DNA of 64,000 nt from Escherichia phage CLB_P2. The notes under the pieces are model-generated. The model was not told the origin of the DNA. It did not search any database and was given only the letters and a program-made list of their open reading frames with translations. Position numbers and translations under genes: made by a program. The stretch lies in sequence record OL770107, one strand, 5' to 3'. Shown piece by piece: positions 3,540-47,054 of the stretch. The first letter of the stretch is position 1. Each line of letters begins with the position of its first letter.

Positions 3540-3800
3540 ATGACTAAAGATGATTTCCTGGATGCCGTAGAAAAAGCCAGTGAGAAATTTGAAGTGATGG
3601 GTGTACGAGTTCATAAAGACCGAAATTATGGGCTCGATGTCCAAACGTATTCGTTATGGCTTGTAGGTGAACATAGTCTTGTAACCAGCTTAGTTATGGG
3701 TGTTGATGCTCAACCCTTACTGGTTAAATTTAGAAGTATGGAAAAAGCTACCAAAGAAATGATTAAGCTTGGTAAATGGCTTGATAAAATTCAAAAATAA
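3540..3800 (+). CDS. hypothetical protein (86 aa)
   Basis: ATG at 3540 two nt after the upstream stop; the track ORF 3477..3800 begins inside the previous gene. Confidence 0.5.
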
Positions 3801-3802
3801 GT

Positions 3803-3836
3803 GTTTACAAGGTCTGTAGATATGATACTATAGACC
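3803..3836 (+). promoter_or_regulatory. early-type promoter with inverted repeat around the -10
   Basis: GTTTAC 3803-3808, TACTAT 3826-3831; GGTCTGTAG / CTATAGACC inverted repeat flanks the -10. Confidence 0.5.
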
Positions 3837-3859
3837 TATCAACTAATGAGGAAAATAAA

Positions 3860-4087
3860 ATGGCTAAGGTTAATATTGATATCGTTGATTTTGAATACAC
3901 TTACGAAGTTATCCGTAATCGTTATCCTTCTTTGACTATGACTTATATCAAAGACACACAATTCTGTAGTATGCAAATTGAAGTTCAAGGTCCTCTTGAA
4001 GACCTTACCCGCTTTATGGCTGATGAATATTGTGATGGTATGCATGCTGAAGACGCTGAATTTTATATGGGCTTAATTCAAAAATAA
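3860..4087 (+). CDS. hypothetical protein (75 aa)
   Basis: ORF preceded by SD GAGGAAAA and an early-type promoter. Confidence 0.55.
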
Positions 4088-4089
4088 GT

Positions 4090-4125
4090 GTTTACCTAAG
4101 GCTATGGTAGTGATACTATAGCCTT
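4090..4125 (+). promoter_or_regulatory. early-type promoter with inverted repeat
   Basis: GTTTAC 4090-4095, TACTAT 4114-4119; AAGGCTAT / ATAGCCTT inverted repeat. Confidence 0.5.
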
Positions 4126-4145
4126 ATCAACTTGAGGAGAATAAA

Positions 4146-4385
4146 ATGAAATTACAACGCGAATCAATCAAAGATTCTGAAGTTAAAGGCAAATGGTACT
4201 TCACAATCCAAGGTAACAATCCGGAAGCTCTGGAAAAAGCCGAACAAGCTTTGTGTGAAATGGGTTGGAAAGATGAGTGTGATGGGTGTCCTCTTTATGA
4301 AGATGGTAGCTCATCTGGTTTCTGGATTCACCATTCTGATGTTGACCAATTTAAAGCCGACTGGAAAGTCGCTAAGAAAGCGTGA
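4146..4385 (+). CDS. hypothetical protein (79 aa), Cys-containing
   Basis: ORF with SD GAGGAGAA upstream. Confidence 0.55.
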   Translation: MKLQRESIKDSEVKGKWYFTIQGNNPEALEKAEQALCEMGWKDECDGCPLYEDGSSSGFWIHHSDVDQFKADWKVAKKA

Positions 4386-10690: not shown

Positions 10691-11835
10691 TTGAATTATA
10701 TGATAACTTGATGACTTTGGTTAAAAACTCGACTAAATCTAAGTTCTTCTTTAAAGACTTCCAGAGTGCGCTAGGAGTCAACTATCGCATCTTTAGTTAT
10801 AACTATGCATCGTACAGTGATTGGTTGGAAGACGGCGCACTAGAGTGCCGAGGCATTATGTTTGAAATGGACGAGAATGGTCCTGTACGTATCGCTGCTC
10901 GTCCTATGCAAAAGTTCTTTAATCTCGATGAAAACCCACTGACTATTGGTTTGGATTTATCACAAGAAAATATTGATTTGGTTATGGCCAAGGAAGATGG
11001 TTCCTTGATTTCTACCTTCATGGATAGACAATATCTTTCTGTTAAATCTAAAGGCTCTATCCATTCATCGATGGTACATGATTCTTTACGTTTCCTTCGT
11101 CTCCCTGAAAACGAGGCCTTCGCTGCTCGTTTAGAAGAAATTACTAAAGCAGGCTATACATGTAACCTCGAGTATGTTTCGCCTACTAACCGTATTGTGC
11201 TGGCATACCAAGAAACAAACCTTATCTTACTGAACGTTCGTAATAACGAAACAGGTGAGTATATCCCTTACGCTGAACTGTTTAAAGATGGCGCTCTGCG
11301 TAAGCATTTGGTTAAAAGCTATGAACTCGCTGAAGGTGATTTTGTTGACAATATCCGTAAACAAGAGGGTATTGAAGGCTTTATCTTTGTACTTAAAGAT
11401 GGCACGTTCTTTAAACTCAAAACCGCTTGGTATAGCGCACTGCATCATACCAAAGATTCCATTAACAATAACGAACGTTTGTTTGAAGTTGTAGTGGCTG
11501 GTGGAACCGATGACCTCCGAGGTTTGTTCAGTACTGATTCATTTGCTATTGAGAAAATCAATGCATTTGAACGTATTCATTTAGACTACTTAGAACAGTC
11601 CTTGGCTTTGTTAGAAGCAGCATATTCTCAGCTCAAGGGTCGTGACCGTAAAGACTACGCTGTTACCGGTCAGTTAATCCTCAAAGACTTCCCAGGGCTG
11701 TTCTCTATTCTTATGCAGGCGTACGTAGGCGGTATTAATTATGATACGGTCGTAGACCAGATTAACTCTGTGTTCTTGAAAAATCATAAGGCCCAAATCC
11801 CTGAAAAATATTTGAAAGAAATTGTGATAGAGTAG
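10687..11835 (+). CDS. rnlA: RNA ligase 1 (382 aa)
   Basis: Strong match to remembered T4 Rnl1 (YRIFSYNYASYSDW, ECRGIMFEMD, lysine-containing ligase motif). Confidence 0.92.
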   Translation: MIELYDNLMTLVKNSTKSKFFFKDFQSALGVNYRIFSYNYASYSDWLEDGALECRGIMFEMDENGPVRIAARPMQKFFNLDENPLTIGLDLSQENIDLVMAKEDGSLISTFMDRQYLSVKSKGSIHSSMVHDSLRFLRLPENEAFAARLEEITKAGYTCNLEYVSPTNRIVLAYQETNLILLNVRNNETGEYIPYAELFKDGALRKHLVKSYELAEGDFVDNIRKQEGIEGFIFVLKDGTFFKLKTAWYSALHHTKDSINNNERLFEVVVAGGTDDLRGLFSTDSFAIEKINAFERIHLDYLEQSLALLEAAYSQLKGRDRKDYAVTGQLILKDFPGLFSILMQAYVGGINYDTVVDQINSVFLKNHKAQIPEKYLKEIVIE

Positions 11836-11863
11836 TTTACATCTCCTCATGATGTGTTAGTAT
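11835..11863 (+). promoter_or_regulatory. early-type promoter
   Basis: GTTTAC 11835-11840, TAGTAT 11858-11863, 17-nt spacer, then SD AGGAGAAAA and ATG at 11894. Confidence 0.5.
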
Positions 11864-11893
11864 AGACTTACCAACTAATGAGGAGAAAACAAA

Positions 11894-13123: not shown

Positions 13124-13189
13124 TAGTGTACAAACTCTTGGGAGCAGAGTATAATGCTCCTACGGATTATAAAAATTGAGGAAATGACT

Positions 13190-17381: not shown

Positions 17382-17681
17382 ATGATTTTAACTGAACAAG
17401 AAACTATTCGGCTCCGTGAAAAAGTCAAGACTATCTTGTCTGTAGGCTTTCACGAAGTTCTGTTTGAAAAGGCGGATGGCAGCGTTCGTCGTATGACTTG
17501 TACTCGCGACCTAGACCTCCTCCCATATAAAGAAATTCAAGCACCGGGCCCAGAAGCTAATAAAGAACCGGTTAATTATATTCGTGTATTTGATACCAAG
17601 GTTAATGACTGGCGCTCGTTCCGTTTCGATAAACTGATTTCTATTAACGGGCTTCAGACTGAAACTCTGCTTGTCCTGTAA
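17382..17681 (+). CDS. hypothetical protein (99 aa)
   Basis: ORF between cd and gene 31. Confidence 0.5.
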   Translation: MILTEQETIRLREKVKTILSVGFHEVLFEKADGSVRRMTCTRDLDLLPYKEIQAPGPEANKEPVNYIRVFDTKVNDWRSFRFDKLISINGLQTETLLVL

Positions 17682-17683
17682 TA

Positions 17684-17708
17684 TGCTTTAAGAATAGCGT
17701 GTTATTAT
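17684..17708 (+). promoter_or_regulatory. candidate middle (MotA-box) promoter for gene 31
   Basis: TGCTTTA at 17684-17690 matches the MotA-box core; TATTAT 12 nt downstream; about 30 nt before the gene 31 ATG. Confidence 0.4.
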
Positions 17709-17739
17709 TAATCTATCAACAAAACAACATGGATTAAAT

Positions 17740-18063
17740 ATGGAACTTCCTATTAAAGCGGTTGGAGAATATGTTATTCTCGTTTCCGAACCAAAACAAG
17801 CTGGCGATGAAGAAACTACTGCATCTGGTATCGTTATTGGCAAACTTCATCAAGGTGAAATCCCTGAACTTTGTGAAATTTATTCTGTAGGACCTGATGT
17901 CCCTGAAGGTTTTTGTGAAGTAGGCGATTTGACTCCACTTCCTGTTGGTAAGATTGCTAACGTGCCTCACCCTTTAGTTGCATTGGGTATTAAACAGCCT
18001 AAAGAAATTAAACAGAAATTCGTTACCTGTCACTATAAAGCTATTCCGTGTCTTTATAAGTGA
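17740..18063 (+). CDS. 31: co-chaperonin gp31 (GroES-like), 107 aa
   Basis: [21 protein letters not shown]...[20 protein letters not shown]...[23 protein letters not shown] matches remembered T4 gp31. Confidence 0.92.
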
Positions 18064-18223
18064 TATAAATAATAATATGGATTGGCTGATGCCATACAGA
18101 GCTTTGCTGGTGTATGGGGTTAGCTAATCCTAAGCGGTGGACTACAACTGAGAGACTTGCCGAAAGGAAGTGAAATTCAGAAGAACGTGTCCACCAATCT
18201 TTATCTCGAATTGAGAATTTAAA

Positions 18224-18472
18224 ATGAACAAACATCTGAATCACGCTCTTGAACTGCAACGCAACGCTTGGAACAACGGCCACGAAAACTATGGTGCATC
18301 TATTGATGTTGAAGCCGAAGCACTGGAAATCCTGCGTTATTTCAAACATCTTAATCCTGCTCAGGCTACTCTGGCTGCTGAACTGGAAGCAAAAGATGAA
18401 CTGAAATATGCTAAGCCTTTGGCTTCAGCAGCTCGTAAAGCAGTACGTCATTTTATTATTACCCTGAAGTAA
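18224..18472 (+). CDS. rIII: rIII-like lysis-inhibition accessory protein (82 aa)
   Basis: 82 aa, the same size and position (after gene 31) as T4 rIII; no motif verified. Confidence 0.55.
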   Translation: MNKHLNHALELQRNAWNNGHENYGASIDVEAEALEILRYFKHLNPAQATLAAELEAKDELKYAKPLASAARKAVRHFIITLK

Positions 18473-18825
18473 AATCGAGGAGCCGTCGAACTGTCTGATT
18501 AATGATTTGCGAATCATTATAGTTTTAAGACCCCGGCAGTTTTACGGTGTACCTCTTGAATGTTATTTTATAGCGGCAAGTGCATGCTACCCCGAGGTGA
18601 TGGCCAATCGGGAGTACGCCTCAAGGCCTATATACCCATCAGTATATATCTTATCCTCGAGAAATCGAACCCGGAACCTTTAAGCTAACGGTGTGCAACA
18701 GATAAGAGCTATGATGACGAGGTTTATGGTTATCCTGTCGTTAAATATCCGAAACCTATGTTCCCCTTGAGGGCTTGCGCAGGCAACGCCAATAAGTCCT
18801 GCATTCTAATTTAAGAGATTTAAAA
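18473..18825 (+). other. about 350-nt region without a convincing ORF; candidate structured leader or ncRNA
   Basis: All frames are interrupted; candidate ORFs are 42 aa or shorter and lack a ribosome-binding site; several local inverted repeats. Confidence 0.3.
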
Positions 18826-18987
18826 ATGGCTAAGAAAGAAGTTAAAGTAGTTGACGGAACCTCTAAACGCGCTGGTTACAAGCGTGCGTCTAACAAGCGT
18901 ATCAATCAGGTAGTTGATAAGCTTCAAGCTCGTGCTCGTGCAGTATTGCGTGCAGATGCTGCTTGCTTCGGTAAAGTTATTGCATAA
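18826..18987 (+). CDS. small basic protein (53 aa)
   Basis: ATG at 18826; Lys/Arg-rich product MAKKEVKVVDGTSKRAGYKRASNKR...; followed directly by a strong terminator. Too short for the ORF track. Confidence 0.4.
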   Translation: MAKKEVKVVDGTSKRAGYKRASNKRINQVVDKLQARARAVLRADAACFGKVIA

Positions 18988-18992
18988 GTTAT

Positions 18993-19020
18993 GGGACTCT
19001 TCGGAGTCCCATTTTTGTTT
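18993..19020 (+). terminator. rho-independent terminator
   Basis: GGGACTC-TTCG-GAGTCCC hairpin followed by ATTTTTGTTT. Confidence 0.7.
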
Positions 19021-19038
19021 CTAAATCTTTAAAAAAAG

Positions 19039-19067
19039 GTATACATCTCCGGTAGGCATGATACTAT
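19039..19067 (+). promoter_or_regulatory. early-type promoter (degenerate -35 GTATAC, -10 TACTAT)
   Basis: 17-nt spacing; followed by a conserved 40-nt leader. Confidence 0.4.
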
Positions 19068-19108
19068 AGACATGTACCAAATAATACGAAAACAAACTGG
19101 AGAATAAA

Positions 19109-19477
19109 ATGAAAATCAATCTTAACTCATACATCAAAGGTAAAGACCACGACGGTTACAAAGCCATTGAAACTAAAGAGATGCAATGGCGCTTGTACAA
19201 AGAACAATTTGAATTTGTAGGTTGTATGACTCCTGAAGGTCCTTCCGATGACTTCTCTTGGAAAATTTTGGTAACAAACTTTTTTACTGGCGATACCTAC
19301 GAACTGAAAACTATCATAACCGGTAAGATTCGTTGTAAGACCTATGAAGATGAAGAAACCGGTTATTCTGAAGATGTTACATGGTATCAAAATGGTCGTA
19401 TCACTACAGATAACCTGATCGAAAAAATGAATGCCAAAGGTGAATTAAATTTAGATAATTGGATTAAAGTTGCATAA
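19109..19477 (+). CDS. hypothetical protein (122 aa)
   Basis: ORF with SD GGAG; the 40-nt leader up to the ATG is identical to that of the next ORF. Confidence 0.6.
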   Translation: MKINLNSYIKGKDHDGYKAIETKEMQWRLYKEQFEFVGCMTPEGPSDDFSWKILVTNFFTGDTYELKTIITGKIRCKTYEDEETGYSEDVTWYQNGRITTDNLIEKMNAKGELNLDNWIKVA

Positions 19478-19481
19478 AACG

Positions 19482-19521
19482 GTTTACTTTGGTACAGGTT
19501 GTGTTATTATAGACCTGTACC
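19482..19521 (+). promoter_or_regulatory. early-type promoter with inverted repeat
   Basis: GTTTAC 19482-19487, TATTAT 19505-19510; GGTACAGGT / ACCTGTACC inverted repeat. Confidence 0.5.
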
Positions 19522-19551
19522 AAATAATACGAAAACAAACTGGAGAATAAA

Positions 19552-19917
19552 ATGAACTACATCAACTTCGAACGTAAATATGTTTCTAACGGTATCGCTG
19601 GTTCTTCTGAAGTTATTTGTCTGTGGAAACACAACAACGGCACAGTGTGTGAAATCGAACAGTGCATGACTCCTAACTACGTTTATATGCGCTTTGAAAA
19701 TGGTATCACAGTTTCAATCACTATGGAAGGTTCTACTTTTAAAATCGCTTTGGACGATGATTTCCGTCAACGTGATTTAGGTACCCATCCTTGCTGGAAC
19801 GGTTCTAATCGTAAGCTTCTGGTTAAAACCTGGATTCGTCACATCCTGAGCAACCGTGCTAAACCTGAACACCTGGAAGCAATCTTTGATGTAGTTCTGA
19901 ATGAATTTGATATCTAA
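19552..19917 (+). CDS. hypothetical protein (121 aa)
   Basis: ORF with the same leader and SD as 19109..19477. Confidence 0.6.
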   Translation: MNYINFERKYVSNGIAGSSEVICLWKHNNGTVCEIEQCMTPNYVYMRFENGITVSITMEGSTFKIALDDDFRQRDLGTHPCWNGSNRKLLVKTWIRHILSNRAKPEHLEAIFDVVLNEFDI

Positions 19918-19958
19918 TCTTAAAAATGGAGGCTTCGGCCTCCTTTGAGGAAAATATT

Positions 19959-20246
19959 ATGTTTATGACCACTTATTTCGATACTCGTAAAAATTTCTGT
20001 GAAGTTGTTTTCTCTAAGGCAGGTAAAGATGTTCCTGCTGAAAAACAGCCTACTCGTGAATCCATTAAGGCTTATGCTGATGTGGTTTGTCCAGTAGAAT
20101 TCCGTACAGTCAATGGTCGTGACACCCTAGCAATCACTAAGCTCAACCATGATATTAACATCGACCCTAGCGCTGCCCGTGAAGTCAATACTTCTGACAT
20201 CTACGGTGGTAATGTTAAATCACATGGATTTCAGATGAGGTTCTAA
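19959..20246 (+). CDS. hypothetical protein (95 aa)
   Basis: ATG at 19959 after SD GAGGA; the upstream in-frame ATG at 19926 lies inside the hairpin GGAGGC-TTCG-GCCTCC. Confidence 0.5.
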   Translation: MFMTTYFDTRKNFCEVVFSKAGKDVPAEKQPTRESIKAYADVVCPVEFRTVNGRDTLAITKLNHDINIDPSAAREVNTSDIYGGNVKSHGFQMRF

Positions 20247-20440
20247 TGCAACTATTCTTATCACAAACCGTTCAGCTAAAAGGCATAGGTATTCCTGGTA
20301 TGATTTCAAAGGTTTTACCTGCTTTTAAATTAGGTAATGCTACTATTAAAGAAGCCTACACCGTCCTATGGGTCGATGGCACTGAAGACGTTCGCATGGG
20401 TTCTGAATTGTCTGTAATCAAATGTTTGAAGCGAGGATAA
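20246..20440 (+). CDS. hypothetical protein (64 aa)
   Basis: ORF coupled to neighbours. Confidence 0.45.
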   Translation: MQLFLSQTVQLKGIGIPGMISKVLPAFKLGNATIKEAYTVLWVDGTEDVRMGSELSVIKCLKRG

Positions 20441-20441
20441 C

Positions 20442-20654
20442 ATGTTTAGGAAATTGATTCAGAAATTATTAGGTACGGAAATGGTCGAAGTGACTTATCG
20501 TGTAACCGACGTAAGTCCATGGGCCCGGAATATTGAACCATATACTAAAACAATTAAAATGCTGAAATCTGACGGTGGATTATCTATTAAAGACCGTCTT
20601 CCCGGTTATGGACATTGGGCTGATGTCGAAATTATAAGTGTCAAAGATGTCTGA
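20442..20654 (+). CDS. hypothetical protein (70 aa)
   Basis: ORF coupled to neighbours. Confidence 0.45.
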   Translation: MFRKLIQKLLGTEMVEVTYRVTDVSPWARNIEPYTKTIKMLKSDGGLSIKDRLPGYGHWADVEIISVKDV

Positions 20655-21105
20655 GTTAGAAATTAGAAGTAACTTTCCATGGCCATCATGCGCATTAAGT
20701 AACTTTGCTAAATGGCCTTTCGTTATGGATGGTATCCAATTTGGTGGACTCGAAGGATTCCTCCAAGGATGTAAGGTGAAAAATGTTGAACAACAAAAAC
20801 GTATATTTAGGATGTCCGGGTTGGACGCGCAAAAAGCTGGACGAGCTTATGCTAGAGCTGCGGACCGTGGGACGCTTTTCTGGCTTGGAATTCCCTTTTC
20901 AAGATACTCTGCAGCATGGAAAGAGTTGTATACAAATGCATATTTTGAAGCAGCGCTCCAGAACAAAGGATTCCGAGAAGCTTTACAAGCCACTAAAGGT
21001 AAGGTTTTAAAGCATTCAATGGCAAGCCACCTCAAAGAATGTGATACAATACTAACTGAAAAAGAGTTTATCGACATCCTAAACAAATTGAGAGATTTAT
21101 TATGA
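20638..21105 (+). CDS. NADAR / YbiA-like (DUF1768) domain protein (155 aa)
   Basis: Pattern SNFAKWPF..DG..F...EGFLQ..K and ALQATKGKVLKHS parallels E. coli YbiA (SNFAAWPI..DG..W...EHYFQAQKF, ALLATAPAKLVEH) as remembered. Confidence 0.55.
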   Translation: MSKMSELEIRSNFPWPSCALSNFAKWPFVMDGIQFGGLEGFLQGCKVKNVEQQKRIFRMSGLDAQKAGRAYARAADRGTLFWLGIPFSRYSAAWKELYTNAYFEAALQNKGFREALQATKGKVLKHSMASHLKECDTILTEKEFIDILNKLRDLL

Positions 21106-23748: not shown

Positions 23749-25809
23749 ATGACCGAACAATTGAATGAGGTGTTTGAGTCCGAAGGCACCCTGCCTACTG
23801 TAAACTTAAACCCAAAACTTAAAGTACCCCAGATTTGGAAGATTGGCGATGCTGAATCCCAATTGGTTGCTCGTATGGTATCTTATGCCTCTGAAGGCGA
23901 TGCTATTAAACAGGTTAAATTAGGTGATAAATACGCCCACGTTATCCTTATGAGCCTTTCAGCTAAAGGTTCTCCAGCCGAACTTAAAGGCGGCCTAGGC
24001 CCTACTCCTATTGATGCTATCAATACCATTTTCGACGTAGTATTCGAACAAGTTAAAAAGCTTCGTATGGATGCAGTGATGTTCCGTTTTCCAACCAAGA
24101 AAATGAAAGGACAAGGCCCTATTGTCCAACGGATTATCCAACGTTTGGTAGCACAGAAAACCGGTGGACGTTTTAAAGTAGTTCCTGCTATGTACCAATT
24201 TACCGGTAAACATACTTATATCCTAGTAGTTCGTAAACAAGCTGATATCGAAGATATCAAAGGTATGCCAGGAATTAATTCCGAATTATACACTAAGGTA
24301 GATTCTGATGTCGGTGAAGTTTATATTTCTAAAAAAGAAGGCGTACAGGTTACTAAAGAAACTGCTATTGCCGGCAGTATTGCCAAAGTTGAAGAACGTC
24401 GCACTGATAAAATGGTTATAACCAAGACTAAGATTTCTCGTCGCGCTATTGCAGCAAGCCAGTCTTTAGAATCCTATCGTAATGAAAGTGAACTGTTTAA
24501 GAAATATGAAGCCACTGCCGCTGATTTTAATAAACCGGCAACAGCTCCATTAATCCCTGAGGCCCAGGAAATGGTCACCAATAACAATTCTCCTGCGGCT
24601 AAAAATAAAGTTGCTAATATAGTAGCTGAAGGCACTGCTGAAGAGTTGCATTACGATTATAAAATGTTTCCTCTTCACGGTATAGGTGAAATCCAAGAGA
24701 AAATTAAAGAGAAAATCCTTACAGCCATCAAAAACGAACCTTTGACATCTGTTAAAGCTCTAGAAAAATATGCCTCTGTTATTAATACAGTTTTTGAAGA
24801 ATATAAAGGCGAATGGCTGGCTATACATAACAAAACTCGTAAAGGTCAACCTGACGACGTCTGGAATGAATTAACCGAGTCCAAGTGGAAAGCCGCTAAG
24901 ACCAAGTTCATTAAAAAACGTGTTTATAGTTTTGCTGGTGTAGGTGGCGGTATTATGGTTGATATTACTTTAGGTCATAGTGCAGATAAATACACCCCTT
25001 CTCAAAAACGTGGTATTCGTGAATATTGTGGCTCCGGATATGGCGATATCAATAACCTTCTTTTAGGACGATATAATCCTCAGAACTATGAAGTTATGAG
25101 CGAAAAAGATATCGAATCTGCAGTTAATAATTTGGATTCTGCTTTTGAAAACGGTGATAGATTACCTGAAGGCATCACAGTTTATCGTGCACAGAGTATG
25201 ACGTGGGCCATATATAATGCTTTAGTCAAAAATAAAGTATTCTATTTTAGAAACTTTGTATCAACTTCACTGACCCCTATTATTTTCGGTCGTTTTGGTG
25301 TTACTCATGCCGGTGTAGGTCTTTTAGAGCCTGAAGTTAGAGCCGAACTTACTGTAGATAAAAATGATGAAGGTTATACTAAGGTCCAAGGTTCCGGCGA
25401 CAAATTGGTTAAAGTTGGTTGGGCCATTGACGGTGCTTCTAAAGTTAACGTGGTATTCCCAGGACAACTTGGTATTGCTACTGAAGCTGAAATCATTCTT
25501 CCGCGCGGACTAATGGTAAAAATTAATAAGATAACAGATGCATCTAATAATGATGGTATAATATCCAACAATACAAAACTCATTCAAGCTGAAGTTATGA
25601 CATCAGATGAGCTTCAAGAATCTGTAGTGTATGATGGTGACGTACTAATGGAAACCGGTGAATTGGTTGTATACCAAGATGACTTCGATACTTCCGAAAG
25701 CCCTGTATCTTTTGATTCATTTGTTAAATCTACACGGTTTGACGTACTGCCTCTTTTGGCTTCATGCATAGACCTCTATGACATACCAGAAAAATTCATC
25801 CAAGGGTAA
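23749..25809 (+). CDS. alt: Alt-like ADP-ribosyltransferase, copy 1 (686 aa)
   Basis: R-S-E ADP-ribosyltransferase signature (YRAQ, FVSTSL, EAEIILPRG); size near T4 Alt; position between ligase and gene 54. Confidence 0.85.
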   Translation: MTEQLNEVFESEGTLPTVNLNPKLKVPQIWKIGDAESQLVARMVSYASEGDAIKQVKLGDKYAHVILMSLSAKGSPAELKGGLGPTPIDAINTIFDVVFEQVKKLRMDAVMFRFPTKKMKGQGPIVQRIIQRLVAQKTGGRFKVVPAMYQFTGKHTYILVVRKQADIEDIKGMPGINSELYTKVDSDVGEVYISKKEGVQVTKETAIAGSIAKVEERRTDKMVITKTKISRRAIAASQSLESYRNESELFKKYEATAADFNKPATAPLIPEAQEMVTNNNSPAAKNKVANIVAEGTAEELHYDYKMFPLHGIGEIQEKIKEKILTAIKNEPLTSVKALEKYASVINTVFEEYKGEWLAIHNKTRKGQPDDVWNELTESKWKAAKTKFIKKRVYSFAGVGGGIMVDITLGHSADKYTPSQKRGIREYCGSGYGDINNLLLGRYNPQNYEVMSEKDIESAVNNLDSAFENGDRLPEGITVYRAQSMTWAIYNALVKNKVFYFRNFVSTSLTPIIFGRFGVTHAGVGLLEPEVRAELTVDKNDEGYTKVQGSGDKLVKVGWAIDGASKVNVVFPGQLGIATEAEIILPRGLMVKINKITDASNNDGIISNNTKLIQAEVMTSDELQESVVYDGDVLMETGELVVYQDDFDTSESPVSFDSFVKSTRFDVLPLLASCIDLYDIPEKFIQG

Positions 25810-25812
25810 ATA

Positions 25813-27936
25813 ATGGAAAATTTAAACGAAGTTTTTGATAGTGATTCCGCTAAAAACTATCCAGTAACAAATCTTAAGCCAGGCTCAGGTATCCCACAGA
25901 TTTTCTCTATCCAAGCACCAGGTAATGATAACCTGGTTGCTCGTATGGTATCTTATGCGTCTCAAGGAGACGCTATTAAAATGGTTAAGCCTGGCGACAA
26001 ATATGTCCACGTTATTCTAATGAGTTTGTCAAGCAAGGGTGCTCCGGCTGAACTCAAAGGTGGGCTTGGTTCCGACCCGCTTGGTGCATTGAATACTATT
26101 TTCGATACGATATATGAACAAGTAAACAAACTTAAAATGGATGCAGTTTTGTTCCGTTTCCCTACCAAGAAAATGAAAGGTAAGGGTCCTACTGTTCAGC
26201 GGGTATTAGCTCGTTTGGTGATGGCACGTACCGGTGGTAAGTTTAAAGTTGTTGATAACATGTTCCAATTCAGTGGAAAACATACCTATGTTCTTTTAGT
26301 ACGTCGCGGCACTAATATCGAAGATATCAAGGGTATGCCTGAAATTGATGCTGACCTTTATACCAAGGTTGAGTCTAAAGTTGGTGAAGTTTATGTTTCT
26401 AAGAAAACTGGCCGGGCCGTAAGTAAGGTCGAAGCCGTGGCGGCATCTATTGCACAGGTTGAAGAGAAACGTACCGATAAGGCTGTTATCTCTCGTACTA
26501 AGATTTCTCGTCGTATGGCTGCAGCAGCACAGTATTCTACTGCCGAACCTGAAACTTTATCCCCTAAAGAATTGCAGGTTTATAATGAGTTTGAAGCTTC
26601 TGTACCTGTTCATTCGGCTGAAGGTCCTGAGAACGAAGGTATTGAACAAATTAGCCAGAACTTTAAAAAAGGTGCTATTACTAAAATGCGTCAGGCCTCT
26701 CAGTTTAAATCTAAGAGTGAGGACCTTGCCAACTTTAGATACACCATTGCTCTCACACACGCTTTAATGACTGATAGTAAATTTAAACTAAATTATGCTA
26801 ATAGAGATAAACAAGGGTTTGAAATTTACTCTAATAATATGGCATTTTTTAATACGGAAGTCGATAGACTTTTAAGCGGCCTTTCTCAAATCAATACTAC
26901 CAATAGTCTGGATATTATTAAGAGAATTGTTAATAACCTGAGTGCCCGTTTTCAGGGGTCTCCTTCAGAGAAAGCATCCCGAATTGCTTTCGCTATGGAA
27001 GCCGTTTATAAACTGATTAACGATTCTATTAGCGATGCATATGCTTATTCAGGCGAGCTCATTAAACCTAAGGGCTTGACCAAAGACGAAAGTAATGCCA
27101 TTATTGAATATTGTGCGGCTGAATATGCTCCTATGAACTTATTCCTTTTAGGTAAACCTGAATCCGAAAACAATACAACAGCTATTAAATTGATTAAGGA
27201 TTTAGACTCAGCATTTACCAAGGGTATTAAACTTCCTAAAGGTACTATTTTGTATCGTGGTCAGGATTTACCATACAAAATTCTGCGCCATAATATTGAT
27301 AACAAAACCTTTTACTTTAAGAACTTTGTATCCGCTTCATTAAAGCCTAATATCTTTGGTGAATTTGGTAAAAATTATATGGCCCTCGACAACCAAGCAG
27401 TTTTTGTTGGTGATGAAGGTTCTTTATCCTCCGCCGATGAGTTGTTTAAATTGGCCAGTGGTAGTTCATCTGACGTAGGTGAAGTTGATGATGAAGAGGT
27501 AGAATGGGAAGAAGACGAGTTTGGTAATCCAATTGCACCTGAAGGCCCTGCAGACAGGATTGCTGAAATTGGTATGGTTATTCGAGGTGCTGAAGCAGTT
27601 AAAGTTATCGCTCCTGGTGACCTTACAGAATATGCCGAAGAAGCGGAAATTATCCTTCCGCGCGGATTATTGTTGAAGGTTGATAAAGTAGCAGCTTTTG
27701 CTATGAATGATAGGGTATCTCACAAATACCTTATGGAAGCTACAGTGACATCTCCTTCAGAACTCAGTGAGTCCGTTTACGATGGTGACCATCTGATGGA
27801 AACCGGCGAAGTTAAATTGATGAATGGGTTTAAAGAATTCCTAGTTTCAGAATCTGTTTCAGAAAGTAACGAGGCTATGGAAATCCTTGCTGCATCTTTG
27901 GACATCTCTTCTTTACCAAATAAATTCAAAATGTAG
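25813..27936 (+). CDS. Alt-like ADP-ribosyltransferase, copy 2 (707 aa), tandem paralog
   Basis: Shares the first ~220 aa with copy 1 (LVARMVSYAS.GDAIK, HVILMSLS.KG.PAELKGGLG, FRFPTKKMKG.GP) and the motifs YRGQ, FVSASL, EAEIILPRG; central region divergent with an acidic insert. Confidence 0.85.
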   Translation: MENLNEVFDSDSAKNYPVTNLKPGSGIPQIFSIQAPGNDNLVARMVSYASQGDAIKMVKPGDKYVHVILMSLSSKGAPAELKGGLGSDPLGALNTIFDTIYEQVNKLKMDAVLFRFPTKKMKGKGPTVQRVLARLVMARTGGKFKVVDNMFQFSGKHTYVLLVRRGTNIEDIKGMPEIDADLYTKVESKVGEVYVSKKTGRAVSKVEAVAASIAQVEEKRTDKAVISRTKISRRMAAAAQYSTAEPETLSPKELQVYNEFEASVPVHSAEGPENEGIEQISQNFKKGAITKMRQASQFKSKSEDLANFRYTIALTHALMTDSKFKLNYANRDKQGFEIYSNNMAFFNTEVDRLLSGLSQINTTNSLDIIKRIVNNLSARFQGSPSEKASRIAFAMEAVYKLINDSISDAYAYSGELIKPKGLTKDESNAIIEYCAAEYAPMNLFLLGKPESENNTTAIKLIKDLDSAFTKGIKLPKGTILYRGQDLPYKILRHNIDNKTFYFKNFVSASLKPNIFGEFGKNYMALDNQAVFVGDEGSLSSADELFKLASGSSSDVGEVDDEEVEWEEDEFGNPIAPEGPADRIAEIGMVIRGAEAVKVIAPGDLTEYAEEAEIILPRGLLLKVDKVAAFAMNDRVSHKYLMEATVTSPSELSESVYDGDHLMETGEVKLMNGFKEFLVSESVSESNEAMEILAASLDISSLPNKFKM

Positions 27937-41431: not shown

Positions 41432-42937
41432 TTAAAACGTGCTCATATTGGTATGGTCTTCGACAGAAAATAAAACTTCAACAGGGATATCTGTAGTCGT
41501 ATTAAGAGGGCCGCCTACAATAAACACAGATACAGTGTAGTATTTTCTAGTATCACGGTCAAATATTTCGTAACGGTTAAATTGTCTTGCACTAGAATAA
41601 GCCAAATCGTCGAATAATTCAGGAGATGATGACCACAACACATTACTCCAGTTGGCACATTCTATTCCGTTTTCATAGTTGGTAAATCTTTTAATATCAA
41701 GCCTATTAGTAAGACCTGCATTAGTAGCCCTTATATGGATGCCTACAGATGAGTACATGCGAACATGAAGAACCATATTAAGGTCCCACAAACGTATTTC
41801 CTTCCACTCTGAAGTGTTCAGAGGCTTATCAAATCTTAAAGAGCCTTTCCAATATCTAGGTGGATAGAATGGGAAAAGTTTATCATATAAAGATTTTAAT
41901 TGAGACTGGGTTAAAGAATCGACATCAAATACTGCATCTTTGCCTGGCGCACCTGCAGGACCTATAGGACCTTGAATACCTTGAGGACCTTGATCGCCTT
42001 TTTCACCTTTAGGTCCTGGATTACCTTGTGGACCCTGCGGCCCTTGAGCACCGGGCGCGCCATCTTCTCCTGGATATCCAGGTCTTCCTTCTTGTACAAA
42101 CAAATGCCAATAATCAACCCATAGGTCTCCACGGCCTGGATAACTATCATTATTTGCTATATTGTCCTGAATACAAATCCAAGAAGACCCTTCGCACTGG
42201 ACTAAATCATTTACATAATAAGGTGTGCCAGGGTCCCAGTTTCCGGCCCAGATAAACCCATTACCATCTTGGCCTGGCGCGCCTTGTGGACCTTGAGGGC
42301 CGGTTGGGCCTGTTGGTCCTTGAGGACCTGGTGCACCGATATTAGCCAATAGCGCCCAAACTCCTTCGCTAGGAGGTATTGTTCCTGTATTAGAACTGAT
42401 GCAAAAATAAGAAGCTCCCTGGTATCCAACTGCATCGTCTTTAGAGTATTGGGTAGATTCATCCCAGGCTCCCTTCCACACCAAACCTGCCGGGCCTATA
42501 GGACCTTGTGGTCCTTGCGGTCCTACTTCTCCTTGGGCCCCTTGTAAACCCTGAGGGCCTTCTTTTCCTGGTGAACCCGGGTCTCCTTTAGGACCTTCTG
42601 GACCTGCTGGTCCTGGTTCGCCCTTTTCTCCTTTAGGACCCGGGTTACCTTGAATACCTTGCGGCCCTGGGTCTCCTTTAGGGCCTTGTGGACCTTCAGT
42701 ACCAGGTGTTAGCATCTCATTAGTTATACCTAAATGGGCCAACGCGCCTTCCCTAGAAGCTTGTTTTATAAATTCAAGTCCATAACTTTGAGAAGAATCC
42801 AACATAGTAGGGTCTAAGGTGCTTTCACTAGTGAGTATGTCTGCAAATTCCAATGATTTATCCTGCGGAACTTCTACTAATGATACGCCTCTAAAGTGAC
42901 CTCTACCGTCATGCCCGTATAATGGATTGTCTGACAT
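41432..42937 (-). CDS. collagen-like triple-helix repeat protein with two carbohydrate-binding-like (CBM5/12-type) modules (501 aa)
   Basis: Three Gly-X-Y runs of about 24, 8 and 17 triplets, separated by W.G.WD...Y...D.V...G.S(Y/W).CI modules; SD CAGGAG before the ATG; first gene of a two-gene minus-strand operon. Confidence 0.8.
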
Positions 42938-46967: not shown

Positions 46968-47007
46968 AAAGTTGTTTACAGCAAGGTTCCCACGTGTTAC
47001 TATAGTA

Positions 47008-47038
47008 CAGAAACAAGAATGGGAGACCGAAGTCTCCC
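47008..47038 (-). terminator. terminator after gene 23
   Basis: GGGAGAC-CGAA-GTCTCCC hairpin followed on the minus strand by ATTCTTGTTTCT. Confidence 0.6.
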
Positions 47039-47054
47039 ATAATAAGGTTAGGTC

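Follow-up and report, generated by a model that had tools for sequence, protein, structure and literature searches.

Early cassettes of T4-like phages and the 30.8/30.7 locus

The promoter-early stem-loop (PeSL) elements of T4-like phages combine an AT-rich tract, an early promoter, a stem-loop and a Shine-Dalgarno (SD) sequence with a start codon. They have been described from phi1/RB49 (Arbiol et al., 2010; PMC2839356) and from PST/T4 and nt-1/KVP40 (Comeau et al., 2014; PMC4122927): in these phages they flank small non-essential open reading frames (ORFs) in variable regions, and the breakpoints of gene replacements and deletions lie inside the cassettes. The T-even promoter consensus of PeSLs is TTTACW-N17-TAYWAT (Comeau et al., 2014), and their subclasses include stem-loops that lie upstream, between the promoter boxes or over the -10, with G-T pairs tolerated (Arbiol et al., 2010). 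PeSLs are further characterised by promoter and terminator/attenuator activity, by mini-circles that arise when neighbouring cassettes recombine, and by a repeated family spread over the hyperplastic regions of the genome. Here we report on the region of genes 30.8 and 30.7 in Escherichia phage CLB_P2 (Dhakavirus; sequence record OL770107), where two cassettes of the same build, with the promoters P30.8 and P30.7, stand one behind the other. The stretch analysed, henceforth the window, comprises 64 kb (64,000 nucleotides, nt), and genome-scale statements on dispersal are to be read for these 64 kb. We consider it probable that the two are tandem T-even PeSL-type immediate-early cassettes which have been homogenised, and which form the recombination joints for the swap and loss of 30.8. 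As such they add a clear new case to a mechanism already on record, PeSL-type modular shuffling, and do not constitute a new kind of element.

Dhakavirus shares the gene order rIII-30.9-30.8-30.7-30.6-30.5 with T4 (Tequatrovirus), p000v (Mosigvirus) and VR20 (Gaprivervirus). Truncaite and colleagues are said to have characterised, in 2006, the early promoters upstream of T4 30.8 and 30.7 together with a rho-independent terminator, a stem-loop and RegB sites. These reportedly comprise the orthologues of the promoters, of the terminator after 30.9, of the hairpin after 30.7 and of the GGAG RegB sites discussed below; phage TuIa, a natural 30.8 deletion, was reportedly among the phages of that study. 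The 40- and 55-nt identities and the swap of two alleles between identical cassettes are, unlike these elements, features of Dhakavirus. We know of no prior description of PeSLs for the 30.9-30.7 locus or for Dhakavirus, JS98 being mentioned just for its g43 region. A further point of comparison is the early-promoter repeats of the IP genes (Repoila et al., 1994): so far as they are summarised in PMC2839356, these too are T4-early-type promoters with weak, variable and AT-richer stem-loops that flank small exchangeable genes, at another locus and with other cargo.

Architecture of the P30.8 and P30.7 cassettes

The hallmark of the pair is an exact 40-mer, TGTACCAAATAATACGAAAACAAACTGGAGAATAAAATGA, with two plus-strand matches in the window (19073-19112 and 19516-19555). 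No third match is found in the window at up to 3 mismatches, and 100 dinucleotide shuffles yield none at all. A preliminary description of this DNA had noted these 40 identical nucleotides, an early-type promoter ahead of each copy and a different ORF after each, and the present analysis bears out all three. Repeat finding extends the identity to 55 nt at 95% (19059-19113 versus 19502-19556), from the extended -10 (TGnTAYTAT) to ATGAA. Either copy of the 40-mer makes up nearly the entire 5' untranslated region (UTR), of 30.8 in copy 1 and of 30.7 in copy 2, plus ATGA.

P30.8 (19039-19067, plus strand) consists of a T4-early-type -35, GTATAC (19039-19044), a 17-nt spacer, TGn and the -10 TACTAT (19062-19067). 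P30.7 (19482-19510, plus strand) begins 4 nt downstream of the 30.8 stop codon and has the -35 GTTTAC (19482-19487), again a 17-nt spacer and TGn, and the -10 TATTAT (19505-19510). Transcription would start ~7 nt past the -10, i.e. at ~19074 from P30.8 and ~19517 from P30.7. In the GenBank record of TuIa (AJ621579) the depositors marked -35, -10 and ribosome-binding site (RBS) at the same elements of the orthologous P30.8. An A/T-rich UP-like stretch, TAAATCTTTAAAAAAAG (19023-19038, plus strand), lies 5' of the P30.8 -35; in cassette 2 the A/T-rich tract is supplied by the 3' end of 30.8, TTAAATTTAGATAATTGGATTAAAGTTGCATAAAAC.

Both leaders end in GGAGAATAAAA (19099-19109 and 19542-19552, plus strand), which places the SD GGAG 7 nt 5' of the ATG. 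The RegB/S1 cleavage consensus of T4 is the 11-nt single-stranded GGAGRAYARAA with the optimum GGAGAAUAAAA (PMC1702504), and in T4 the SD of the 30.7 transcript has served as a RegB target in experiments (PMC9409239). The leader end is a letter-for-letter match to the optimal 11-nt target and is predicted to be unpaired in the own-promoter transcripts of copies 1 and 2. RNA from either promoter is predicted to be fully unstructured altogether (fold 0 kcal/mol). Unstructured leaders suit the cassette role because RegB/S1 and efficient initiation both need open RNA; by homology with T4, the SD is predicted to double as a RegB shut-off site.

The genes behind the two leaders are 30.8 (type A allele; 19109-19477, plus strand; 122 amino acids, aa; PF06019; AlphaFold2 pLDDT 89.9) and 30.7 (19552-19917, plus strand; 121 aa; PF06919; AlphaFold2 pLDDT 86.4), identified as homologues of T4 30.8 and 30.7 from annotation and Pfam. 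The region matches Dhakavirus CLBP2 at 100% identity, phage dhaeg at 98% and IME08 at 95%. The preliminary description took the two ORFs to be unrelated and named paralogy as an observation that would overturn its reading. We detect no homology between them: BLASTP gives E 0.042 over 28 aa, hhalign of the 26- versus the 18-sequence family gives a probability of 0.25%, and the Pfam families are separate, on which grounds we reject paralogy of the two. The orders of secondary structure in the AlphaFold2 models likewise differ (mostly beta plus one helix versus seven strands plus two C-terminal helices). Foldseek against the PDB returns nothing significant for either product, neither a functional clue nor a common fold match.

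Exchange of the 30.8 allele between the cassettes

From rIII to 30.5 the JS98-like Dhakaviruses (records L006-L009 and L024) are 97-100% identical to the window, except for a single module at 19116-19482 (plus strand), in which identity drops to ~45-50%. Identity is lost just past ATGAAAA, at the beginning of 30.8, and is regained at the P30.7 -35; the same two cassettes bracket both alleles. Type A of 30.8 (369 nt) is carried by the window, IME08, dhaeg, IME341 and C6, and the T4-type allele, type B (333 nt), by the JS98-like Dhakaviruses; the two proteins share 38% aa identity. Among ~44 Dhakavirus records the majority have type B, with a cassette span of ~744 nt, and a minority type A, with ~781 nt. 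Outside Dhakavirus, type A is also found in Gaprivervirus and Mosigvirus, and type B in T4. Hence, the allele type is incongruent with genus.

Loss of 30.8 in other genera leads to the same sites. In the Mosigvirus JM10, which is devoid of 30.8, the -35 and spacer of a Mosigvirus P30.8 are joined at the -10 to a P30.7-type -10 that is followed by the exact Dhakavirus 40-mer; this hybrid cassette sits on a short Dhakavirus-like patch. In AV109 (Mosigvirus) and TuIa (Tequatrovirus), likewise without 30.8, the whole P30.8 cassette runs straight into the 30.7 ATG, and the junction lies in GGAGAATAAAATGAA. Finally, KPV15 (Jiaodavirus, L034) has, relative to its sister L033, precisely lost 30.8 and a 170-aa ORF, with the junction in ACGGAGAATAAAA. 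The sequences point to at least three independent deletions of 30.8, all with junctions within cassette homology. The comparison of gene content across related phages that was proposed earlier as a check has thus placed the breakpoints of both swap and deletions in the cassettes.

Several relatives carry other ORFs at or near this position. In distant T4-like phages (among L019-L037), one or two further ORFs of 156-177 aa separate 30.8 from 30.7 (1940-2942 in L019 and 2395-2907 in L033, for instance); in L027, 30.8 is missing and other small ORFs occupy its position. The Dhakavirus C6 (L040) features, past the 30.9 terminator and ahead of P30.8, an extra proline-rich ORF of 118 aa (887-1243), which is equipped with its own terminator hairpin and an RBS but with no promoter. 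Directly downstream, a further module replacement is seen in TuIa (AJ621579, L039), where a 615-nt '30.6A' (550-1164) takes the place of the 288-nt 30.6 of T4 and the window. Upstream, the intergenic stretch between rIII and 30.9 (18473-18825) includes ~120 nt, at ~18580-18700, that are present in the window and L006 and absent from L009, VR20, p000v and T4. This 353-nt spacer has short ORFs only and no Rfam match; in JM10 a 38-aa ORF is annotated in the corresponding gap.

Age and probable homogenisation of the cassette pair

Both promoters recur in T4, VR20 and p000v, each at its corresponding position. They are therefore old and positionally conserved, and the pair is not a recent duplication. 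What is confined to one lineage is the degree of likeness between the two leaders. The RBS block GGAGAATAAAATGAA, the 3' third of the leader, is common to both genes in all genera; the leader middle is the same in both copies only in Dhakavirus. Over the stretch from -10 to ATG, the two cassettes of one genome are 94% identical in Dhakavirus, against 69-84% in T4, VR20, p000v and L033 (the two T4 leaders being ~69% alike); orthologous cassettes of different genera are 66-89% identical. Most simply, this pattern would reflect a single gene conversion in the ancestor of Dhakavirus, with drift thereafter. The Dhakavirus isolates IME08, dhaeg, L008/L009 and L024 show point changes confined to a single leader copy. 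Leader identity is therefore not strictly enforced.

In IMG/VR, a 26-nt core of the leader is present in 6 Dhakavirus contigs only and at this locus only, with its copies 406 or 443 nt apart. Together with the window search, which also places the core at 30.8/30.7 only, this leads us to reject a dispersed mobile leader: the repeat is a local pair. The preliminary description had spoken of a duplicated cassette that resembles the PeSL cassettes proposed to drive modular gene shuffling. The long identity is real, and the resemblance is supported by the sequence definition, the 30.8 swap and the at least three deletions with cassette junctions. Its description as a duplication is misleading, for the promoters are old and only the long identity is a lineage-specific homogenisation; nor is the leader a dispersed mobile cassette, its core occurring at this locus alone in the window and in IMG/VR.

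Stem-loops of the two cassettes

The cassettes differ in their stem-loops. That of cassette 1 is the intrinsic terminator after 30.9 (18991-19022, plus strand), ATGGGACTCTTCGGAGTCCCAT followed by a T-run, with the hairpin at 18991-19012; it was found by the terminator scan, has an RNA fold of -15.2 kcal/mol (z -5.2) and is kept in T4, VR20 and p000v. In cassette 2, which begins 4 nt after the 30.8 stop, the hairpin is for this reason built into the promoter itself (19488-19524, plus strand): TTTGGTACAGGTT (19488-19500) pairs with GACCTGTACCAAA (19512-19524) in a 13-bp stem with one G.T pair, and the -10 lies in the loop (-22.5 kcal/mol, z -3.7; p=0.0005 against the genomic background). Since the start site falls within the 3' arm, the hairpin can arise in read-through RNA alone. 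Copy 1 has at its -10 region just an imperfect GGTA..CATG/CATGTACC pairing. Its best spacer pairing is that with the SD, TCTCCGGT (19046-19053) with ACTGGAGA (19096-19103), 8 bp and p 0.08 against background; this pairing is seen again in Dhakavirus, VR20 and T4, is statistically marginal and is not diagonal in the cross-lineage matrix. Accordingly, the inverted repeat that had been noted around both -10 boxes is strong in copy 2 and weak in copy 1.

We assessed the hairpin by stem statistics for each sequence against shuffles and genomic background, by a cross-lineage matrix of the arms and by a list of mismatch types. This approach suits the P30.7 promoters because their loops differ in length, which puts the arms out of register in a MAFFT alignment. 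The orthologous P30.7 stems are built from five or more unrelated arm sequences (GGTACAGGT, GGTGAGGGTCT, GGTGTAGGAGTA, GCTGATTGAGTGT and CTCCGTTGTATGT), with a shuffle p<0.001 for most. In the arm matrix, pairings within a lineage score 9-14 and those across lineages mostly 4-8. On this evidence, the P30.7 hairpin is conserved by covariation. All of the independent internal non-Watson-Crick pairs (4/4) are G.T on the sense strand, i.e. C.A on the other (p ~0.06), which favours a single-strand fold in the sense orientation. The hybrid promoter of KPV15 has no P30.7-type stem and keeps the upstream terminator instead. No known structured RNA is matched by Rfam at E<=1 over 17600-20700. The possibility that the copy 2 hairpin is an intrinsic terminator was considered and rejected: the stem is followed by AAATAATACG and has no U-run, the terminator scan is negative, and no U-run follows the P30.7 stem in any orthologue examined.

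The genes e, soc, 49 and I-TevI of T4 offer a comparable arrangement. As McPheeters in 1986, Macdonald in 1984 and Barth and Gott in 1988 are said to have found, their promoters lie inside a hairpin, such that transcripts from upstream are structured and those from the proximal promoter open. P30.7 resembles this geometry in having the -10 in the loop and the start in the 3' arm, with only the read-through RNA folding. The likeness goes further in relatives of the L020/L028 type and at 11835 of the window, where the 3' arm is the SD itself. P30.7 differs in that it is an early promoter, whereas those of e, soc, 49 and I-TevI are late promoters with an occluded RBS. Its hairpin ends ~18 nt before the GGAG; as the RBS is left free, translational occlusion is not its mechanism.

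A spacer-to-downstream stem is also found at 4/10 candidate early promoters of the window (p<=0.02 against genomic background), which might hint at a design principle common to T-even early cassettes. Such stems lie at 3810-3837, 4097-4126, 11842-11886 and 13139-13162, with arms such as AGGTCTGTAG/CTATAGACCT, TAAGGCTATGGTA/TACTATAGCCTTA and TCTCCTCAT/ATGAGGAGA, the 3' arm of the last being the SD; the promoters at 2726, 27936, 42948 and 46974 have no such stem. Proceeding from these observations, we tentatively put forward the idea, which we would sooner doubt than expect to hold, that the P30.7 hairpin is a conserved sense-strand RNA element which marks the origin of a transcript, being formed in read-through RNA only, and which insulates neighbouring cassettes as part of a general T-even early-cassette design. 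It may do so as an attenuator, or by protecting the 3' end that cleavage by RegB or RNase leaves on the upstream message; in those lineages where the 3' arm is the SD, it may act as a translational block. If true, the promoter-inside-a-hairpin logic of T4 late promoters would extend to early promoters. The covarying hairpin offers a testable lead on the insulation between adjacent early transcription units.

The cassettes as PeSL elements and probable joints for gene exchange

Set beside the published definition, the promoter of copy 2 (TTTACT-N17-TATTAT) is an exact match to the T-even PeSL consensus and that of copy 1 (TATACA-N17-TACTAT) has one -35 mismatch. A stem-loop is present in each cassette, as an upstream terminator hairpin in copy 1 and as the 13-bp stem enclosing the -10 in copy 2; since Arbiol et al. 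(2010; PMC2839356) include stem-loops that overlap the -10, the latter is inside the published definition. Both copies have an AT-rich tract upstream and end with SD and start codon. ORF content is variable between them, as seen in the 30.8 swap, the deletions in JM10, AV109, TuIa and KPV15 and the ORF insertions in relatives. As to dispersal, the leader is limited to 30.8/30.7 within these 64 kb, and early cassettes of the same architecture are found elsewhere in the window. At the level of sequence, the cassettes conform to T-even-type PeSLs in every feature of the element itself. Unlike in RB49, the stems are not of the GGGG/CCCC type; and unlike the dispersed PeSL family, these cassettes are a local homogenised pair, 94% identical over the whole transcribed leader. 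This case is set apart by the homogenised pair of 55 nt, the swap of alleles A and B, the hybrid deletion junctions and the covarying promoter-embedded hairpin.

We envisage the following mode of action. Each cassette would comprise a strong sigma70/T4-early promoter (UP-like tract, -35, TGn and -10) and a ~35-nt A-rich unstructured 5' UTR ending in GGAGAATAAAA-TG, such that each small gene could be switched on independently right after infection; RegB would then, by homology with T4, shut each off post-transcriptionally. The stem-loop part would differ, with a classical terminator upstream in cassette 1 and, in cassette 2, a hairpin around the -10 that read-through RNA alone could form. In the Dhakavirus ancestor, the segment from -10 to ATG of one cassette may have been copied onto the other by gene conversion via the homologous recombination of the phage, giving rise to the 55-nt repeat. 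The cassettes would act as portable homology, since they are conserved from phage to phage and resemble one another: in co-infecting phages, crossovers in both cassettes would swap the 30.8 allele, and within a single genome a crossover between its two cassettes would delete 30.8.

The locus provides an unusually clean natural example for the PeSL model at nucleotide resolution, in which one cassette pair brackets two divergent alleles in near-identical phages; the hybrid cassettes left by the loss of 30.8 add three different crossover points in three genera. It lends support to a view of conserved promoter/leader cassettes as joints for the exchange of accessory genes in T4-like phages, leaving expression undisturbed. 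For therapeutic Dhakavirus and Mosigvirus phages, it marks 30.8 as a dispensable and exchangeable slot with its own immediate-early signals.

Alternative explanations

One may ask whether the likeness of the two cassettes stems from a tandem duplication of promoter and gene, in which the coding parts diverged past recognition and the regulatory part stayed similar. The proteins are nearly equal in length (122 and 121 aa), both begin with MK/MN, BLASTP aligns a CMTP motif at equal offset in its E 0.042 match, and the RBS is common to both genes in all genera. We nevertheless hold such an origin to be extremely improbable: the profile comparison, the separate Pfam families, the differing predicted secondary-structure orders and the lack of common fold matches speak against it, as does the restriction of the long identity to Dhakavirus, T4 leaders being only 69% alike. 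Decay from an old duplication would give the opposite pattern of identity. Convergent selection would account for the identity in another way, if exactly this 5' UTR were optimal for translation, RegB and S1, with neither gene conversion nor a role in recombination. It would explain why GGAGAATAAAATGAA, which is the RegB/S1 consensus, occurs in both genes of all genera, and the other early cassettes of the window, which share 60-79% over 63 nt, can be read in the same sense. The leader middle, AAATAATACGAAAACAAACT, does not fit: it varies freely between genera (48-76% identity) and tolerates the single-copy substitutions of IME08, dhaeg, L008/L009 and L024, and is hence not tightly constrained. 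Moreover, JM10 shows a Dhakavirus leader physically moved into a Mosigvirus on a short mosaic patch. Selection of this kind as the sole cause thus appears most unlikely to us, and the 40-nt identity, including the leader middle, is best explained by common descent.

The third alternative concerns the P30.7 inverted repeat, which could be a DNA-level element that drives the exchanges: an operator of a dimeric regulator or a cruciform hotspot, e.g. a target of endonuclease VII. The repeat has its centre at the -10, the expected site of action of a repressor; PeSL stems have been speculated to be targets of recombination proteins (Arbiol et al., 2010; PMC2839356); and the JM10 crossover is at the -10, within the hairpin loop. 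However, the arms are wholly different between lineages with pairing retained, which is unusual for a protein operator, and all 4 internal mismatches are G.T on the sense strand. The junctions of TuIa, AV109 and KPV15 are in the RBS, outside the hairpin, and P30.8 has no comparable repeat yet participates in exchanges. We consider a DNA-level role of this kind very unlikely.

Several points weigh against, or limit, our preferred reading of the pair as homogenised PeSL-type recombination joints. The 30.8 alleles are 78-91% identical at the nucleotide level to the closest alleles in other genera, about as diverged as the flanking genes; the exchange must hence be old, and neither donor nor direction can be assigned. 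A query with the synthetic junction finds no simple 30.8 deletion in the ~44 Dhakavirus records, despite their having the longest repeat: either the 55-nt identity does not visibly raise the rate of deletion there, or 30.8 is under selection. Uniform recombination, combined with the survival of viable and correctly expressed products alone, would also yield breakpoints at the cassette edges. For CLB_P2, promoter activity, start sites and RegB cleavage are predictions from T4 homology, and homogenisation by gene conversion is read from patterns of identity. Finally, as the copy 2 hairpin has no U-tract and is not a canonical terminator, the terminator/attenuator role ascribed to PeSL stems is only putative in its case.

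Other features of the window

Beyond the pair, a GC hairpin, GGAGGCTTCGGCCTCC (19928-19943, plus strand), lies 3' of 30.7 and 5' of the 30.6 SD; no promoter goes with it, and the TuIa record lists this element as a stem_loop. A second family of early promoters and leaders (GTTTAC..TGATACTATAGACCTATCAACTAATGAGGAAAATAAAATG) occurs at 2721-2783, 3798-3860, 4086-4148 and 11830-11892, with 60-79% likeness over 63 nt. The members at 3803 and 4090 also share the AATTCAAAAATAAGT that precedes them. These cassettes lie in the stretch from gene 32 to frd, which is highly variable: 25/261 matching records cover at least 80% of it. At 46974-47040, a promoter (GTTTAC-18-TACTAT) is followed by a GC hairpin, GGGAGACCGAAGTCTCCC, with no obvious RBS or ORF start; a small RNA or a structured leader is a possible interpretation.

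Direct repeats that are 72-80% identical at an offset of 2070-2157 nt (23864-24336 versus 25934-26406, and 25483-25554 versus 27640-27711) indicate two tandem paralogous genes ~2.1 kb apart. The biggest repeat families of the window are arrays with a period of 9 nt at 41940-42710 (minus-strand sense), made up of ACCTTGAGG-like units; they look like collagen-like Gly-X-Y repeats encoded on the opposite strand.

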